From NCBI GenBank assembly GCA_964642875.1, contig CAZXRF010000008.1, forward strand, positions 2,241 through 66,240: a stretch of DNA of 64,000 nt, given 5' to 3'. This document shows, piece by piece, positions 17,401-59,258 of this stretch. The position numbers and the translations under genes are program-made. This DNA comes from an uncultured Chitinophagales bacterium. GTDB taxonomy: Bacteria > Bacteroidota > Bacteroidia > Chitinophagales > JADIYW01. Below the pieces are notes generated by a model that saw only the letters and a program-made list of their open reading frames with translations, had not been told where the DNA came from and did not search any database. The number at the start of each line of letters is the position of its first letter. Position 1 is the stretch's first letter.

Positions 17401-18067
17401 ACAAGCACAGCGACAAAAATTTAATACAGATAAAGATAAATTGCTGGCTCAAAATACGCAACTCGCAGGCGAGAAAGATAGATTAGAAGATGAAAAGAAA
17501 AAGATGGATGATTTATTATCGCAAATGCAAACAGAGCGCGATAAATTGGCAGAAGAGAAAAAGAAAATGGAAGACGATAAAGCCAAATTAGATGCGCTTA
17601 AAAAACAACAAGAAAAAGAAGTATTGGGCTTGAAACGTTCTATTGACTCGTTGAGTAAAGTGCAACAAAAAGCAGTTAATACTATATCACAAAATTATGA
17701 TTTATTTACCGTTCCGCTACAGGTAGGCGCAGTAGCACAGGTCAATAATATTTACTTCGTTGCAGATGCTGCTTTTTTACAAATACCTTCCTACCCAGAG
17801 TTGGATAAAGTGGTTTTATTTTTGGCAAGAAATAAAAATTTAAAAGTAGAAGTTGGCGGACATACCAACGGTTTGTGTGATGATTATTTCTGTCAAAAAC
17901 TATCTACCAACCGAGCGAAAACGTGCGTAGATTATCTAATAAGTAAAGGCATAGCAGCAAATAGATTGTCGTATAAAGGTTATGGGAAAACAGATTTACT
18001 AAAACCCAATGAACCAGGAAATCCATTGAATCAGCGTGTAGAAATAAAAATTATCAGTGTAGATTAA
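14429..18067 (+). CDS. OmpA-family protein with PD40-like repeats and a long Pro/Thr/Gln-rich, coiled-coil-studded linker
   Basis: Signal peptide; ENLGPNVNS, ISPDGTQLYFTR, LAADGKTLYFSS repeats; C-terminal VEVGGHTN...LSTNRAKTCVDYL...NQRVEIKI. Confidence 0.9.
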   Translation: MKRFFDLIFVCVMLISLKTQAQVQWASKLIDFSSEYKDDLIRSNSTRWSASQVLGYPNSIKYGSSQLAWTPQKQDGSKEFVTVGFTTPQMVQQVIVGENYNAGSICEIILYDDKGKKYTVYENERPSPIQKFEDVLTYFKIKPTYNVVKLKLVINTSAVFGRQEIDCIGISATTAPYKQNINVVKYSEAVGQPENLGPNVNSEFYDHLPLISPDGTQLYFTRKLTDENNNRYFNDDIFVAQILPSGKFSKAENIGPPLNTTDNNFACFISSDNNRLYVANKYIKNTYNYAGLSVSTKHKDGTWSKPKSLNIPNLYNKNEFAHYYMNLEENVALMSIQRDDTYGDLDIYFSKKYSDGTWTEPKNLGPVINTVGAEGSVFLAADGKTLYFSSTGHPGFGSYDMYMSKRLDDTWTNWSKPLNLGYKINSDEMDIYYTIPASGDYAYFSSGITQYGKNDLYRIKLPKEARPEFVDIKKFVAAAPLKKEAPIASAVPVTSIPLPPTPQKVSTTSTSLPPTPTVVLAPPSTNTTAQNTSQTEELQKKLEELKKQQLQVSTPVKSAVATPPASPPTAIKREVVNNIQPFQTEEEKKPKPITTNTIVPVETPKPGPHVLTQQEIQAREQQKNNPTISPNNDNLNALSKRPMPTMTETPPITVQSQKVSNPNIVTNEVDPNTVIDANSSVQKNITLKTANPQIDELQQKLDDLRRQQTVAMSKTSTPSAPYSSTPPSYQSTAEKYPNPQAVTPQSNAKTDDLQQKLDALKQQQQQIGQSNKIYANPYYTTKPYDPQPVKERQDDVASKEYDDYAKKIEDLKQQQKNTKVAVVPPSQIINPTPVPAPPAVSIATAPPVTTASVSISPNPIISKYEEKLKKLKEEMDAMKAAPTVVDTKLSTEPLAETITAKAPAIVDTSLPPHINSPQVSTAVVVSDTISTPSIIPTSIPSNVPSAPDFYAEKNRLDSIQHAQKLAEQKMMATLDKMGNSKQSLEKDIADLQAQRQKFNTDKDKLLAQNTQLAGEKDRLEDEKKKMDDLLSQMQTERDKLAEEKKKMEDDKAKLDALKKQQEKEVLGLKRSIDSLSKVQQKAVNTISQNYDLFTVPLQVGAVAQVNNIYFVADAAFLQIPSYPELDKVVLFLARNKNLKVEVGGHTNGLCDDYFCQKLSTNRAKTCVDYLISKGIAANRLSYKGYGKTDLLKPNEPGNPLNQRVEIKIISVD

Positions 18068-18128
18068 AACACTATGAATGTTTTTTTAGTATGATGAATT
18101 TCGAAAATAAGCGTTGTATATTTATACC

Positions 18129-19094
18129 ATGGCATTAGAAACTTATGAGTCAATAGTTCAATTCTTCCCTCCATCTTCAGCAGAAGATTGGAAGAATAAA
18201 ATTATTAAAGATTTAAAAGGAGAACCTTTTGATAAATTAATCTGGCATACGAATGAAGGTATAGACGTATTGCCTTTTTATACCAAAGAATTTACAAATG
18301 GAATGCAATTGCAGATACCTGCAAAAGCAAATAATGATTGGCAAATTTTAGAACGAATAATTGTACATGATTTAGCCGCTGCCAATAAATCGGCATTATC
18401 AAGTTTACATGCTGGTGTGCAAACTATTATCTTTGATTTGCAAAACAAAAATATTACTACAACAGAAATTTCAATTTTGGTAAATGAAATTGATACTGAA
18501 ATTGCACCAGTTTTTTTTGAAAATTATAAAGCAGAAGATAAAATAATATTAGAGACTATTGTAAAAGATAGCTGCACCGTGTTTGCGAAAATTCCACAAG
18601 AAAATACCCTTACGGAAGAGTTAGTGCATTTACTAAACCTTGCAAAAATAACATCGAATGAAACGGCTCGTGTGCATTTTTTTGTAGGTCAAAATTATTT
18701 CTTTGAGATTGCTAAACTACGTGCTGCTCGTTGGCTGTGGCATCAAATGGCAGATTTGAAAAACCAACATTCACAATTGTATATTACTGCTGAAACAACT
18801 ATTGCTTCCTTTAGTAAGGACGACGTAAATTATAACATACTTAGAAATACAACAGCAGCTATGAGTGCGATTTTAGGAGGCTGCGATCAATTGCTAGTAA
18901 ATAGCCATGATTGTGTATCGTTAGAAACCTCCTTTGGGAAGCGTATTTCCAGAAATATACAACACATCTTGCATAATGAATCATATTTTGGAGAATTACA
19001 TGATGCTGCAAAAGGTAGTTACTATATTGAAAATCTTACTTATCAATTGGCAAAAAATGCCTGGACACAGTTTGCTGATTTAAACAATCATTAG
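18129..19094 (+). CDS. Methylmalonyl-CoA mutase small (beta) subunit-like protein, short
   Basis: WKNKIIKDLKGEPFDKLIWHTNEGIDVLPFYT, YFFEIAKLRAARWLW, NILRNTTAAMSAILGG, AKGSYYIENLT. Confidence 0.8.
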   Translation: MALETYESIVQFFPPSSAEDWKNKIIKDLKGEPFDKLIWHTNEGIDVLPFYTKEFTNGMQLQIPAKANNDWQILERIIVHDLAAANKSALSSLHAGVQTIIFDLQNKNITTTEISILVNEIDTEIAPVFFENYKAEDKIILETIVKDSCTVFAKIPQENTLTEELVHLLNLAKITSNETARVHFFVGQNYFFEIAKLRAARWLWHQMADLKNQHSQLYITAETTIASFSKDDVNYNILRNTTAAMSAILGGCDQLLVNSHDCVSLETSFGKRISRNIQHILHNESYFGELHDAAKGSYYIENLTYQLAKNAWTQFADLNNH

Positions 19095-52688: not shown

Positions 52689-53170
52689 TAACCGCAAAGG
52701 ATATTAAATTTTCCGCAAAGTTCGCAAAGGTTTATAATCCGTTTACTATTCTTTTAATCCCATGTTTTAAAAGTGTAACATTAAAGTTTATAAGCAATCC
52801 AAGCTTAAAATTTCCGAGTTTTAAGTAAGTAAGCGTTTGTGCTAAATGTATGTCGTTTATTGCTTCTACGCTTTTAATTTCTATCACTAATTTATCTTCC
52901 ACCAATAAATCAATTCTATAACCGCAATCTAATTTCACTTCTTCAAAAACTAATGGCATTGCTTTTTCTTTTTCAACTTTAAAGCCTTCTTTTCTTAATT
53001 TGTAATACAAACATTCTTGATATGCACTTTCTAATAAACCTGCACCTAATGAATTGTGTACCTCAATAGCTAAACCAATAACAATATGAGATAATTCATT
53101 CTCTTTCATTCTTATTTTAATATATCCTTTTTTACTTACTCTGCGATAAACTCCGTGTACTTTGCGGTTA
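52689..53170. mobile_element. Candidate GxxExxY cassette: hairpin element split at its loop by a nuclease-like gene
   Basis: Perfect 11-bp terminal inverted repeat TAACCGCAAAG / CTTTGCGGTTA; left and right halves match the two halves of the empty copies; mobility is inferred. Confidence 0.6.
52732..53109 (-). CDS. GxxExxY protein (PD-(D/E)XK nuclease-like)
   Basis: LGAGLLESAYQECL, YRIDLLVEDKLVIEIKS, QTLTYLK, GLLINF. Confidence 0.93.
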   Translation of the reverse strand: MKENELSHIVIGLAIEVHNSLGAGLLESAYQECLYYKLRKEGFKVEKEKAMPLVFEEVKLDCGYRIDLLVEDKLVIEIKSVEAINDIHLAQTLTYLKLGNFKLGLLINFNVTLLKHGIKRIVNGL

Positions 53171-53175
53171 GTAAA

Positions 53176-55002: not shown

Positions 55003-55030
55003 ATGATTTATGAATTCAGATTTGAGATTT
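55003..55030. repeat. Orphan 7-bp array
   Basis: ATGATTT ATGAATT CAGATTT GAGATTT. Confidence 0.8.
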
Positions 55031-55044
55031 ATTTTTTTATTTTT

Positions 55045-55120
55045 ACCGCAAAGTGTACAAAGTTTTTCGCAAAGTACGCAAAGATTTTCTTGGTGAACTT
55101 TGTGTTTTTTCTTTGTGCTT
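55045..55120. repeat. Extragenic nested-hairpin element, copy 5 (right end degenerate)
   Basis: ACCGCAAAG..TCGCAAAG..CGCAAAG..CTTTGTG..CTTTGTGC; lacks the terminal CTTTGCGGT. Confidence 0.8.
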
Positions 55121-55127
55121 TAAAACT

Positions 55128-55196
55128 TCATTTATTCATTACTACATTATTTCATTATTCTATTATTTCATTATTCTATTATTCCAATAATTCCAA
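55128..55196. repeat. Approximately 8-bp period array
   Basis: ACTACATT ATTTCATT ATTCTATT ATTTCATT ATTCTATT ATTCCAAT. Confidence 0.75.
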
Positions 55197-57212
55197 TTAC
55201 TCTTTCATTTTTAATAATAACGTTCCGTTTTCTACAAATTGTTTTTCATTGACATATATTTCTTCTACTTCGCCGTCGCTGTGGGCTTCAATGGTGCTTT
55301 CCATTTTCATAGAAATCATTTTTAATAAAGCATCGCCACTTTTTATTTTGTCGCCGGCTTTCACTAATACTGCTGTTATTTCGCCCGGCATGGGTGCAAT
55401 GTATGCACCTTTTACGGTTTCTTCCATCGGACTTGGAAATCTGTCTACACTATGTAAAACTATCTGTCCGAGTTGCGGCGAATGAACGAAATATTGATTA
55501 CCGTTTTTTGAGAAGAAAAATTTCCGACGAATATTATTTATTTCGAAAGTGTGCCAATTGTTTCGTAATTTCTCGCTACGCTCGAAATGACGGTGCTCAT
55601 TATTGGAATGGTGTTTTGAAGCGAAATGTTTATCTGCAAATGAAATCTGCAAAATGTTGTTTTCATTTTTATATTCTACTAAAAATTCAAAACCGTTGTA
55701 ACTGTATTTCTCTTGCTGTGCTTGGTAAAAATTATTGCGCCAGCCTGCCGGAACACCTTGCGCCAATGTTCTTTTATTTTCTCTTTGTAAAAAGCGATAA
55801 TGTTGTAATGCACAAGTTAAGATATCTAATGTCGCTTGCGGATAATTTTCACCTGTATATTGGAATTTTTTATCTAAGAAATGCGTATCGAAATTTCCAT
55901 TTTGGAAATCTTCGTTATGTAAAATATCAATTAAGAAATTTTTATTCGTTGTAAAACCCGTTAGTACCGTTTCTTGTAAGGCTAAAGTTAATTTAGCGAT
56001 AGCTTCGTTTCTGTTTTTTCCTTTAGCAATAATTTTAGCAATCATTGGGTCGTAGAAAGTAGAAATTTCTGAACCACTTTCAATGCCAGCATCATAGCGC
56101 AAACCATCTACAGTTGCAGGTATCCAATCGATAATTTTTCCTGTAACCGGCATGAAATTATTGGCGGCATCTTCGGCATATAAACGTACTTCAATGGCAT
56201 GTTCGTTTTGTTGGATTTCACCTTGCGAAAAAGGAATTGCTTGTCCTTGTGCTACTTCTATTTGCAATCGAACTAAATCTAAACCAGTAACTTCTTCGGT
56301 TACGGGATGTTCGACTTGCAGTCGTGTGTTGACTTCCAAAAAATAAAATGATTGGTCGGGAGCCACAATAAACTCTACTGTTCCCGCGTTATCGTATTGA
56401 ATAGCTTTGCAGGCTGAAACAGCAGCATCACCCATTTTTTTTCTTGTTTCTGCCGTGATAAAAGGAGATGGGCTTTCTTCTACTACTTTTTGATAACGAC
56501 GCTGAATGCTGCACTCGCGTTCAAAAATATGCACGGCATTTCCGTGTTTATCTCCAAAAATTTGAAACTCTATATGTCGAGCTGAATCGAAATATTTCTC
56601 TATTAAAAGCGTATCGTCACCAAAGCCATTTAAGGCTTCCGATTTTGCTTCGTAAATTGCTTTGTCTAATTCTTTTTCTTCACGCACGATACGCATTCCT
56701 TTTCCACCACCGCCGGCACTGGCTTTCAGCAAAACAGGAAAACCTATTTCAATTGCTTTAGATTTTATGGTAGCTTCACTTTGGTCATCTCCCTGATAGC
56801 CCGGAATGGTTGGCACATTATGCGACTGCATGATTTTTTTAGCACCAATTTTGGAGCCCATCACTTCAATAGCTTTAGGATGTGGTCCTACCCAAATCAT
56901 ATTTTCATCTATTACACGTTGAGCAAATTCTACACGTTCGCTCAAAAATCCATAACCTGGATGGATGGCATTTGCACCGGTTTTTTTTGCTGCATCAATA
57001 ATTTTATCGATTACTAAATACGATTCATTCGGTTGCTTACCACCGATACGAATGGCTTCATCAGCGAGTTTAACAAACAATGCATTTTCATCTGCATCAG
57101 AAAATACGGCAACAGTGGCAATGCCCATTTCCCTGCAAGTCTTAAAAATCCTGCAAGCAATTTCACCACGATTAGCAACGAGTAATTTGGTAATATTTAA
57201 AGTTTGAGACAT
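55197..57212 (-). CDS. Acyl-CoA carboxylase alpha subunit (biotin carboxylase plus biotin carrier; AtuF/AccA2-like)
   Basis: LVANRGEIA, IHPGYGFLSE, GGGGKGMR, ERECSIQRR, EVNTRLQVEHPVTE; C-terminal APMPG...ISMKME. Confidence 0.93.
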   Translation of the reverse strand: MSQTLNITKLLVANRGEIACRIFKTCREMGIATVAVFSDADENALFVKLADEAIRIGGKQPNESYLVIDKIIDAAKKTGANAIHPGYGFLSERVEFAQRVIDENMIWVGPHPKAIEVMGSKIGAKKIMQSHNVPTIPGYQGDDQSEATIKSKAIEIGFPVLLKASAGGGGKGMRIVREEKELDKAIYEAKSEALNGFGDDTLLIEKYFDSARHIEFQIFGDKHGNAVHIFERECSIQRRYQKVVEESPSPFITAETRKKMGDAAVSACKAIQYDNAGTVEFIVAPDQSFYFLEVNTRLQVEHPVTEEVTGLDLVRLQIEVAQGQAIPFSQGEIQQNEHAIEVRLYAEDAANNFMPVTGKIIDWIPATVDGLRYDAGIESGSEISTFYDPMIAKIIAKGKNRNEAIAKLTLALQETVLTGFTTNKNFLIDILHNEDFQNGNFDTHFLDKKFQYTGENYPQATLDILTCALQHYRFLQRENKRTLAQGVPAGWRNNFYQAQQEKYSYNGFEFLVEYKNENNILQISFADKHFASKHHSNNEHRHFERSEKLRNNWHTFEINNIRRKFFFSKNGNQYFVHSPQLGQIVLHSVDRFPSPMEETVKGAYIAPMPGEITAVLVKAGDKIKSGDALLKMISMKMESTIEAHSDGEVEEIYVNEKQFVENGTLLLKMKE

Positions 57213-57220
57213 AATTACTT

Positions 57221-57643
57221 CAGATTTCAGATTTATGATTTCAGATTTATTTTTTATTAGTATTCTTATATTTTAATGTTTTTAGAATAGCTGAAAATAT
57301 AGCAGTTAATTCATTTGTTTCTTTGATTAATTCTTCTATTCCTGTTAATTTATCTTGATTTGTTTCTTTTAATAATTCAAACCAATAAATACATTCATCT
57401 GCTTCTTCTTGAACGATATTTATTTTATTGATAAAATCTGGGTTTGATTTACCTCTTAATGAAGCACGATAATTGGCACCAACGGATGTTGATGCTCGAA
57501 TGATTTGTTTAATTATAATTACATTAGCATAAGTTGGTTTTAACGCTTCTGTAAATTTAATTGTGTTTATAGCAAACTTTTTAGTTCTATTTTTTAATTC
57601 TGATGAGTTCATTTTAAATCATAATTCCTAATTCTTAAATCTT
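57221..57643. repeat. Inverted 7-bp arrays flanking the four-helix-bundle gene
   Basis: Left 57221-57248 CAGATTT CAGATTT ATGATTT CAGATTT; right 57616-57643 AAATCAT AATTCCT AATTCTT AAATCTT (reverse complement of NNGAWTT). Confidence 0.8.
57247..57612 (-). CDS. Four-helix-bundle protein (23S rRNA IVP / TIGR02436-like)
   Basis: LKNRTKKFA, QIIRASTSVGANYR, FINKINIVQEEADECIYWFELL, ETNELTAIF. Confidence 0.92.
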   Translation of the reverse strand: MNSSELKNRTKKFAINTIKFTEALKPTYANVIIIKQIIRASTSVGANYRASLRGKSNPDFINKINIVQEEADECIYWFELLKETNQDKLTGIEELIKETNELTAIFSAILKTLKYKNTNKK

Positions 57644-57653
57644 AAATAAAATC

Positions 57654-59258
57654 TTACATTCTAAACACCCCCCAAGCATTTGTTCCTTTTACTTCATTTA
57701 TATAAGTCAATGCTAAAATTAACCCGAATACATGTCGTGTGTCTCTTGGGTCGATAATGCCATCATCCCAAAGTTGTCCGGTAGCAAAAAATGCATTACT
57801 TTGTTTTTCTATTTCCATTTTCATAAATTCTTTCATTTGTGCTGCTTGTGCTTCGTCGTATGGTTGACCGGATTTTATCGCAGCTTCTTTGCTGACCATT
57901 TGCATAACACCGGCTAGCTGTTCTGCACCCATAACCGCAATCATAGAGTTAGGATAAGAAAATAAAAATCGTGGATTATAAGCTCGACCGCACATGGCAT
58001 AATTTCCTGCACCATACGATGCACCCATCATTAAAGTAAACATAGGCACTTCGGAGTTGGAAACTGCATTAATCATTTTGGCACCATCTTTAATAATTCC
58101 ATTTTGCTCGTAATCTTTTCCCACCATAAAGCCAGTTATATTTTGAAGAAATAAAATAGGTGTGTGGTTCATATTGCACAACTGAATAAAGTGTGCACCT
58201 TTGTTGGAAGAATCATTGAATAAAACACCATTATTGCTAATAATTGCAATTGGATAGCCGTGAATTTTAGCGTAACCACAAACCAATGTAGCACCGTATT
58301 CTTTTTTAAATTCATGAAATTCGGAATCATCTACAATTCGGGCGATTACTTCTCTACAGTCATACGGAACTTTAGTATCAACAGATACAATTCCGAGCAG
58401 CTCATCGATAGGATATTTTGGTTCGTTGTAGTTAACTATTGGTCGATTGTTGATAGTTGGCTGGATACTAAGATTTGCCATTAACTCACGAGCAATTCTT
58501 ATTCCGTCTATTTCGTCTTGCGCTAAGTAATCGGAAACACCAGATATTTTTGAATGCATTTCTGCTCCGCCTAACGTTTCATCATCTACAATTTCATTCG
58601 TAGCCATTTTTACTAACGGTGGTCCTGCTAAAAAAACTTTCGCATTGTTTTTTATAAAAATAGTATAATCACTCATACCCGGAATATAAGCACCTCCAGC
58701 TGTAGAGTTTCCGAATACTATTGAAATTGTAGGCAAGCCTTTTTTTGAACGCCGTGTAATTTCTTTAAAATTATTGCCACCTAAATTAAATACTTGTGCT
58801 TGGTCGGGCAAATTTGCACCAGCACTCTCTACCAAATTTATTCCGGGCAAATTATTTTCCAGACCAATTTCGCCAATTCGTAATGCTTTTTTTAAAGAAG
58901 CAATATCAATGGCACCACCTTTGTTCGTGCCAACGTTTGCCGTAATCATACACATTTTACCCGATACAAAACCAATTCCTGCTACCATAGTTCCGCCAGT
59001 GCCAAAGCCTCCTTTAACTCCTAAACCAGCTAATGGGCATAATTCTAAAAATGGTGAATCTTGATCAAGCAGCATTTCAATGCGTTCGCGTGCCAGCATT
59101 TTACCTTTGCTTTTTGCTTTAGCAATATGTTTTTCATCGCCCTGAAATAATGATTGTTTTAGATGTTTTTCTAACTCTGTAATCTTACCTAGCATTTTTT
59201 CGTAATTCTCCTTGTACGAAGTAGATTGTGTATTTATTTTTGATTTTATAACAGACAT
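57654..59258 (-). CDS. Acyl-CoA carboxylase carboxyltransferase subunit (AtuC/AccD2-like)
   Basis: RERIEMLLDQDSPFLEL, VESAGANLP, STAGGAY, FLAGPPLVKMAT, QNITGFMVG, DDGIIDPRDTR. Confidence 0.92.
   Translation of the reverse strand: MSVIKSKINTQSTSYKENYEKMLGKITELEKHLKQSLFQGDEKHIAKAKSKGKMLARERIEMLLDQDSPFLELCPLAGLGVKGGFGTGGTMVAGIGFVSGKMCMITANVGTNKGGAIDIASLKKALRIGEIGLENNLPGINLVESAGANLPDQAQVFNLGGNNFKEITRRSKKGLPTISIVFGNSTAGGAYIPGMSDYTIFIKNNAKVFLAGPPLVKMATNEIVDDETLGGAEMHSKISGVSDYLAQDEIDGIRIARELMANLSIQPTINNRPIVNYNEPKYPIDELLGIVSVDTKVPYDCREVIARIVDDSEFHEFKKEYGATLVCGYAKIHGYPIAIISNNGVLFNDSSNKGAHFIQLCNMNHTPILFLQNITGFMVGKDYEQNGIIKDGAKMINAVSNSEVPMFTLMMGASYGAGNYAMCGRAYNPRFLFSYPNSMIAVMGAEQLAGVMQMVSKEAAIKSGQPYDEAQAAQMKEFMKMEIEKQSNAFFATGQLWDDGIIDPRDTRHVFGLILALTYINEVKGTNAWGVFRM

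Follow-up and report, generated by a model that had tools for sequence, protein, structure and literature searches.

A small gene of the 23S rRNA intervening sequence (IVS) protein family lies between the genes for two acyl-CoA carboxylase subunits in an uncultured Chitinophagales lineage from activated sludge, and tandem heptamers of opposite orientation flank it on both sides. This arrangement raises the question of whether gene and heptamers merely share an intercistronic gap or constitute a single element, and what role the heptamers might play in the latter case. The locus belongs to a genome of 2.82 Mb with 34% GC and is contained in a stretch of 64,000 nucleotides, referred to here as the window, whose numbering we use unless a contig is named.

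The host gene on the 5′ side of the small gene (57654-59258, minus strand) encodes the carboxyltransferase (CT) subunit of the carboxylase (PF01039 at 7.3e-130), and CT orthologs with 83-92% identity were found in 30 related genomes. The host gene on the 3′ side (55197-57212, minus strand) encodes biotin carboxylase (BC) together with the biotin carrier protein (BCCP; PF02786, PF00289, PF02785, and PF00364). These profile matches bore out the first-pass annotation, made from the letters of the sequence, according to which the small gene separates two carboxylase subunit genes. The small gene itself (57247-57612), which is carried on the same minus strand as both neighbors, encodes a four-helix-bundle protein of 121 amino acids. 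Its 5′ array (57616-57643, minus strand) ends 3 nt (AAA) before the ATG and consists in the sense direction of the units AAGATTT, AAGAATT, AGGAATT, and ATGATTT, detected by TRF as a repeat of period 7 with 4.9 copies, with the consensus NNGAWTT. One more unit, AAGATTT in sense, lies further outward at 57650-57656 (minus strand), where it holds the CT stop codon; the spacer between this unit and the array is 6 nt, i.e., one base short of register. The 3′ array (57221-57248, minus strand; TRF period 7, 4.3 copies) comprises four mirror units, AAATCTG, AAATCAT, AAATCTG, and AAATCTG in sense, which read CAGATTT, CAGATTT, ATGATTT, and CAGATTT on the plus strand. It starts within the stop codon of the small gene (57247-57249) and leaves 8 nt to the ATG of the BC gene. 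Both arrays had been proposed in the first pass, as four NNGATTT units downstream with the last one overlapping the stop codon and as four opposite units beginning 3 nt from the ATG, and both were recovered at these positions, with GAATT instead of GATTT in two of the four upstream units. A simple consensus scan found no terminator-like site within positions 57213-57653, and promoter-like matches in this stretch did not exceed those in shuffled sequences in a consensus scan that left out the Bacteroidota promoter type.

The proposed family membership of the small protein was upheld by two profiles, as its scores of 56.8 bits against PF05635 (3e-15; cut-off, 33.8) and 83.7 bits against TIGR02436 (9.6e-24; cut-off, 24) were both above the curated cut-offs. 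By sequence, the protein also matched PDB entry 2RLD (1.6e-15), an uncharacterized four-helix-bundle protein with five chains. Members of the family share the conserved motif GxxRxxxSxxxNxxE and occur, among other places, in cas operons (PMC3936711). In the alignment, R39, S43, and N47 of this motif were present in the small protein, the first position was occupied by Q36, and the glutamate was replaced by alanine in this clade. The dN/dS ratio among the alleles of the small gene at the CT-BC locus was 0.15 and ranged from 0.09 to 0.23 in 9 of 10 locus groups of the genus, with dS being saturated. Judged by these ratios, the small protein is under purifying selection and, by the same token, functional.

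We then asked how far the arrays stand out from the rest of the genome. When tandem repeats of at least 3.5 copies were counted with TRF, period 7 was the most common period, with 45 arrays compared with at most 14 for any other period. The genome contains six members of the family; the paralogs are 16-33% identical to the window protein, and each copy has a word of its own. For each of 2488 crude gene calls, we compared the 60 nt that precede the start codon with the 60 nt that follow the stop codon; by the complementarity of these flanks, family copies ranked 5th, 7th, 8th, and 90th. The window gene was 8th by complementarity and 20th by duplex energy (-26.8 kcal/mol). Periodicity and inversion around the family members of this genome had been put forward as a check, and three of the six copies indeed ranked between 5th and 8th of 2488. 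One family copy (G000 C19:8967-9194, locus L006) carries an in-frame TAG and is probably a pseudogene; its arrays are kept on both sides.

Across the genus, the family was found in 32 of 33 genomes with about 165 matches, and we analyzed the flanks of 101 copies that fall into 34 locus groups. Arrays were called strictly, i.e., only if both flanks exceeded the 95th percentile of the periodicity score of the genome background. By this measure, arrays on both sides were present around 47% of the 101 family copies and 1.2% of 2469 background genes, an approximately 39-fold enrichment, so the idea that such arrays are equally frequent elsewhere did not hold. The strict call was reached in 19 of the 34 locus groups, and the share recognized by eye was higher. 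Arrays usually contained two to five units, and their copy number differed between near-identical family copies. Stop triplets were about twice as frequent on the inward-reading strand of the arrays on both sides, this strand being the sense strand in 5′ arrays. Both neighbors were co-directional with the small gene in 32 of the 34 locus groups, and all eight distant relatives likewise lay in sense between co-directional genes. The same layout recurred in ten copies of an Emticicia genome and in sampled Pseudomonadota of 42-67% GC, here with words such as CAGTAGG (at least 10 units on both sides), GTGAGAT, and TTAGGCA, as well as in eight relatives of metagenomic or genomic origin.

These figures bear on the simplest alternative, namely, that slippage generates heptamer repeats in intercistronic DNA in general and that the small gene merely sits in such gaps. 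The arrays might then act as three-frame stop insulators, as leaders of the next cistron, or as non-B structures. Such an origin would agree with the rank of heptamer arrays as the most common tandem repeat of the genome, many of them at junctions without the gene, with the copy number variation, with the stop-codon polarity, and with the heptamers that Xanthomonas, Nostoc, and Geobacter are known to carry close to start and stop codons (PMC4692102, PMC2700814). However, it does not account for the 39-fold enrichment and the mirrored sides around a single family, and comparisons of orthologous junctions and of distant relatives, described below, weaken it further.

To see how gene and arrays behave at one position, we surveyed the CT-BC junction in 23 related genomes in which the two genes are adjacent. 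The small gene was present in 9 of them. The other junctions held only a 5′-type array (2 genomes), only a 3′-type array (2 genomes), both arrays with the open reading frame (ORF) absent (2 genomes), unrelated hairpins (4 genomes), or other genes (4 genomes). On the CT tree, junction content differed between sister taxa, and 15 state changes were needed over 27 rows. Junctions without the gene thus exist, as had been asked in the first pass, and the gene is not fixed at this site across the lineage. The nine filled sites represent two allele groups, with approximately 80% and 64% identity to the window protein, and the arrays of the two groups change on both sides together, from CAGATTT/ATGATTT to GGGATTT/GGGAATT/ACGATTT, a joint change that speaks against generic repeats. 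A perfect 21-nt inverted repeat was seen in the filled junction of one genome. Within a single DNA metagenome, a filled contig was found along with the contig of a relative in which 464 nt were replaced by 120 other letters. In one genome (G014, locus L008), the stop codon of the small ORF is lost, and its reading frame continues through the 3′ array into an overlap with the BC start; the array thereby encodes about 15 additional residues.

The absence of the gene from 14 of the 23 junctions, which contain other fillers or none, contradicts the view that its product is a regular component of the carboxylase, i.e., a fixed subunit with an accessory or regulatory role. The sense orientation between both subunit genes and the purifying selection would fit such a subunit; however, the closest relatives of the protein are encoded in pyrimidine, NADH dehydrogenase, CRISPR, and transporter operons, and we regard this role as extremely improbable.

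Several empty sites retain traces of the gene. In L028 and L024, the last approximately 12 nt of the small ORF and the 3′ array remain, while the 5′ array alone remains in L010; the losses therefore look like ordinary irregular deletions and not like precise excision. A second junction, located on contig C9 of the window genome between a gene whose product ends in TGKPLRN and a 392-aa gene that looks like a thiolase gene, revealed similar variety. Here, an allele with the word AGTAAGA was present in 12 genomes, an unrelated allele with the word GAGATTT in 4 genomes, and a third allele in 1 genome, each of the three having its own word, while 6 genomes had an empty gap of 27-31 nt and 2 genomes contained other hairpins. 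The empty sites were devoid of arrays, which again speaks against generic repeats of the gap itself. Across such junctions, modules are gained, lost, and replaced by others. A comparison of filled with empty sites at the two junctions made no target-site duplication evident. No transposase was found inside the module, and neither a catalytic protein nor movement was seen. Collectively, the enrichment, the polymorphism, and the joint occurrence of gene and arrays at 34 different junctions of the genus, as well as in other phyla, lend weight to the initial proposal that array, gene, and inverted array form a small type of cassette, and we are highly confident that positions 57213-57656 constitute one discrete gene-plus-array module, which looks insertable.

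If the arrays belong to the gene, their sequence might be expected to travel with it. A scan of the collection with the single window protein as a query yielded relatives that share 45-59% of their residues with it and come from Sphingobacteriales, Chloroflexota, Betaproteobacteria, and metagenome contigs. All of them keep the GATTT core, with NNGATTT arrays before the start codon and, in most cases, also after the stop codon, even though they reside in six other contexts: pyrR-pyrB (Mucilaginibacter), cas6 (Anaerolineales), nuoJ-nuoK, two ABC-transporter loci, and a Thiobacillus-type locus. The GC contents of these relatives range from 32 to 55%. Within the genus, GATTT was found in both arms of only 1 of the 34 locus groups and in the 5′ arm of 4 of them. 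In the cross-taxon comparison, protein score correlated with the 5-mer content of the arms with a Spearman coefficient of 0.18, a value that was reached in none of 300 within-group permutations. Similarly, the mean 5-mer cosine of arms from genus pairs at different loci rose from 0.155 at protein identities below 30% to 0.289 at 60-75%. A second case of linkage between word and clade involves one Emticicia copy and two genus copies that share AATGTTT-type words.

The core of the word is thus kept at distances at which synonymous sites are saturated, which argues that GATTT is under a sequence-specific constraint that goes beyond a constraint on pairing, although the linkage of word and clade could partly reflect common descent of gene and arrays. 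The word also follows its protein clade to unrelated loci and to other phyla over a GC range of 32-55%, and taking all of these observations together, we consider slippage-made repeats with an accidental gene between them very unlikely. Among the distant copies, two near-identical proteins of Thiobacillus-type genomes (L078 and L079) have five and nine GGATTTC units, respectively, before their start codons, a copy number that is clearly dynamic; both lack a 3′ array because their stop codon overlaps the ATG of the next gene. The copy on an Anaerolineales contig (L210) is preceded by GGATTTT units followed by CAAATCG units, which amount to a hairpin before the gene, in addition to a mirror array downstream.

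Mirrored arrays on either side of an ORF suggest that the transcript could fold back on itself, and the first-pass annotation had proposed that the flanks could pair. Pairing is predicted to be feasible in RNA, as the minimum free energy (MFE) fold of the window cassette contains 40 arm-arm pairs. In an MFE survey, at least 15 arm-arm pairs were formed by 57% of 51 cassettes but by only 2% of 59 size-matched controls. The arms of this cassette are imperfect, with about 70-75% complementarity; its whole fold has a z score of -1.39, and the arm helix is absent from the centroid structure and not dominant in the ensemble. The genome encodes RNase III. In the RNA runs, which were available as assembled contigs, only 4-6% of the sampled words were found. 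One 151-nt contig of an RNA library extends from the end of the small gene across the array to the start of the BC gene; it may represent DNA carry-over and gives no ends.

We also looked for marks that a preserved stem should leave in the sequence. Mismatches between the arms bore no G-U signature (30 sense-wobble and 58 antisense-wobble changes versus 165 transversions), and the order of the units was not mirrored beyond chance (score of 16.07 versus 14.98 for shuffled units; median p of 0.39). The sequences thus give no sign that an exact stem is being selected for. Strict palindromy, considered as a candidate for the conserved feature, was rejected by the unit-permutation test. In our reading, the most fitting description of the arms is that of a single word arrayed in two opposite directions, with the helix as a consequence that may also be used.

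The window contains further elements that resemble the module. On the minus strand, a PD-(D/E)XK nuclease gene of the GxxExxY type (52732-53109; PF13366 at 3e-41) lies in sense between cistrons, flanked at 52690-52735 and 53110-53175 by a CGCAAAG array and its inverse. Its architecture is that of the four-helix-bundle cassette, while the protein fold is unrelated and the word differs. A solo array of the 3′ type (AAATCTC, AAATCTG, AATTCAT, and AAATCAT; 55003-55030, minus strand) is located directly before the ATG of the next cistron with no four-helix-bundle gene beside it. It closes the junction between the BC and crotonase genes, whose preceding part (55031-55196, minus strand) is filled by an approximately 8-nt array (ATAATGAA type) and a gene-less CGCAAAG/CTTTGCG hairpin, so that the solo AAATCNN array follows last. 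The same hairpin family also fills the CT-BC junction in L013 and L014 and the second junction in L165. Elsewhere in the genome, a 389-aa gene (17828-18994 of G000 C22:16504-19015, locus L001) lies two genes downstream of a family copy and is bracketed by arrays of TTAGTGG, which is the word of that family copy, and of its inverse. Brackets of this type are therefore not confined to the four-helix-bundle gene. A minus-strand run of genes (G000 C29:31203-35834, locus L003) has ATTCTTA arrays (plus strand) at four successive junctions, only one of which contains a four-helix-bundle gene.

Brackets of this kind around other genes raise an alternative at the level of DNA, in which the arrays are terminal inverted binding sites used for insertion, exchange, or maintenance of the element, and pairing in RNA is incidental. 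The binder would be the four-helix-bundle protein or a host factor, acting on double- or single-stranded DNA. In favor of such an element, one word is mirrored without a mirrored unit order and without a wobble signature, conservation of the word goes along with the protein clade, and the second junction is home to three distinct cassettes. The unrelated PD-(D/E)XK gene, which shares the operon and the architecture but has its own word CGCAAAG, and the 389-aa gene, bracketed within the operon of another family copy by the word of that copy, point in the same direction. On the other hand, no catalytic activity is known for a helical bundle of 121 amino acids, target-site duplications are not evident at the junctions compared, and the losses are irregular deletions. 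Moreover, the sense orientation in 32 of 34 groups would be expected of an RNA-dependent lifestyle and not of a DNA transposon. On balance, we consider a DNA-level element unlikely, albeit less so than generic repeats.

The data support the description of the module as an IVS-type cassette whose host is an mRNA operon and not a gene for rRNA; its mechanism we infer as follows. The module would be transcribed with the carboxylase operon, with no promoter or terminator of its own recognizable in a consensus scan that did not cover Bacteroidota-type promoters. In the transcript, the arrays would pair with each other around the ORF and form an AU-rich, imperfect helix of about 30-40 pairs. By analogy to the Coxiella IVS, this helix could be cleaved by RNase III, which would release a small mRNA and separate the flanking cistrons. 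The word would serve as a binding site, at three to five units per array, for the encoded and putatively pentameric protein on its own flanks, and binding could bring about autoregulation at the start codon or protection and handling of the helix. Such a co-transcribed IVS-type module, with arms that pair in RNA and a word that is read by the encoded protein, is in our opinion the best overall explanation, to which we assign a probability of roughly 0.5.

The two parts of this explanation are not equally firm. The folding predictions and the analogy to IVS processing suggest that the arms may pair and be processed in RNA, a step to which we give somewhat less than an even chance. The chance that the encoded protein reads its own word is, from the conservation pattern, about even. 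The word is conserved far beyond what pairing needs, and it is therefore most simply explained as a binding site of the encoded protein. As neither a wobble signature nor a mirrored unit order is found, the arrays seem to be maintained because the word is recognized, probably by the protein encoded between them. In our reading, the recognizing factor differs from one protein clade to the next, and the simplest candidate for it is the encoded protein.

How the rRNA IVSs and their S23p proteins arose and what they do has been open since the early 1990s, and so has the excess of heptamers in many bacterial genomes. Our comparison suggests that a widespread gene-plus-heptamer module, which normally lies between cistrons of ordinary operons, may have the IVS as one of its landing sites. 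The Coxiella IVS (PMC4990558) and surveys of heptamers with no link to a gene (PMC4692102, PMC2700814) are already in print, and no description of a general gene-plus-array module was found in the literature searched on PF05635, TIGR02436, S23p, and heptamer repeats. The new element is that a protein clade retains its heptamer core in different phyla and at different host loci, a link that turns “function unknown” into a directly testable binding hypothesis with defined ligands, which for this protein is (NNGATTT)4. Also new are the survey of two junctions, whose states range from filled and replaced to empty and deleted, the rule of sense orientation, and the lack of any mark of a precise stem in the tests made for it. 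Should the arrays prove to be sites of processing, the modules would also reshape operon expression at many metabolic junctions.

Among the known systems, the heptamer repeats GGGAATC of Xanthomonas and GGGGAYT of Nostoc and the runs of four or five heptanucleotides in Geobacter, including paired sites (PMC4692102, PMC2700814), have the same period of 7 as the window arrays, mostly contain about four units, and are intergenic. Like the window arrays, they are found 0-50 bp from start or stop codons, sometimes overlap the stop codon, and frequently form convergent pairs, and the Xanthomonas word resembles GGGAATT and GGGATTT of the second CT-BC allele group. These repeats were described as quadruplex forming or regulatory without a link to a gene, whereas the arrays reported here frame one gene family. 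A structural relationship of this family to the Avd protein of diversity-generating retroelements (DGRs), noted at the outset, agrees with the published homology of bAvd (PDB 4DWL), which has a pentameric four-helix-bundle fold (PMC10053308). Avd is an accessory protein that handles nucleic acids, and no heptamer arrays are known to frame its gene. No reverse transcriptase was present among the called neighbors of the module, which are carboxylase, crotonase, and acyl-CoA dehydrogenase genes.

The trp RNA-binding attenuation protein (TRAP) is a ring-shaped homo-oligomer that binds GAG/UAG repeats. Its fold is unrelated, and we use it as a working analogy for a tandem array that has a short conserved core and variable spacers and lies beside a start codon. 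Extended to the whole family, the analogy leads to the tentative idea, to which we give odds of one in three or so, lower than those of the main reading, that each clade may be a sequence-specific reader of its own heptamer word. A pentameric ring would then bind three to five tandem units of single-stranded nucleic acid beside its own start codon in a TRAP-like manner, and the complementary array on the other side would act as a built-in antagonist or processing partner. If this were true, the family would represent a large natural set of matched protein-word pairs, and it would explain at one stroke why heptamers are so abundant in many bacterial genomes, where ORF-bearing rRNA IVSs come from, and why Avd has a role in handling nucleic acids.

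The closest parallel is the IVS in helix 45 of Coxiella burnetii, in which three tandem GACAGAT units and a degenerate one directly precede the ATG of the S23p gene (Warrier et al. 2016, PMC4990558). These heptamers lie inside a 28-bp terminal stem that is cut by RNase III, and the number of units varies between strains (PMC4990558). The resemblance to IVS excision perceived in the first pass has thereby become concrete in its anatomy. The 23S IVSs of Coxiella and Leptospira and the window module have the protein family and the sense orientation of the ORF within the host transcript in common. The Coxiella IVS and the module further share tandem heptamers right before the start codon, and in both the ORF is enclosed by complementary termini, the 28 bp of Coxiella corresponding to four heptamers, and a variable unit copy number along with a sporadic distribution is common to the Coxiella IVS and the module family. 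Unlike the 23S IVSs, which interrupt helix 25 or 45, the window module lies between two protein-coding cistrons, and its arms are only about 70-75% complementary. Cleavage by RNase III is a feature of the Coxiella IVS and a putative step for the window module. Finally, the Coxiella ORF is decaying and probably untranslated, while the ORF of the window module is intact and, by its substitution pattern, under purifying selection.
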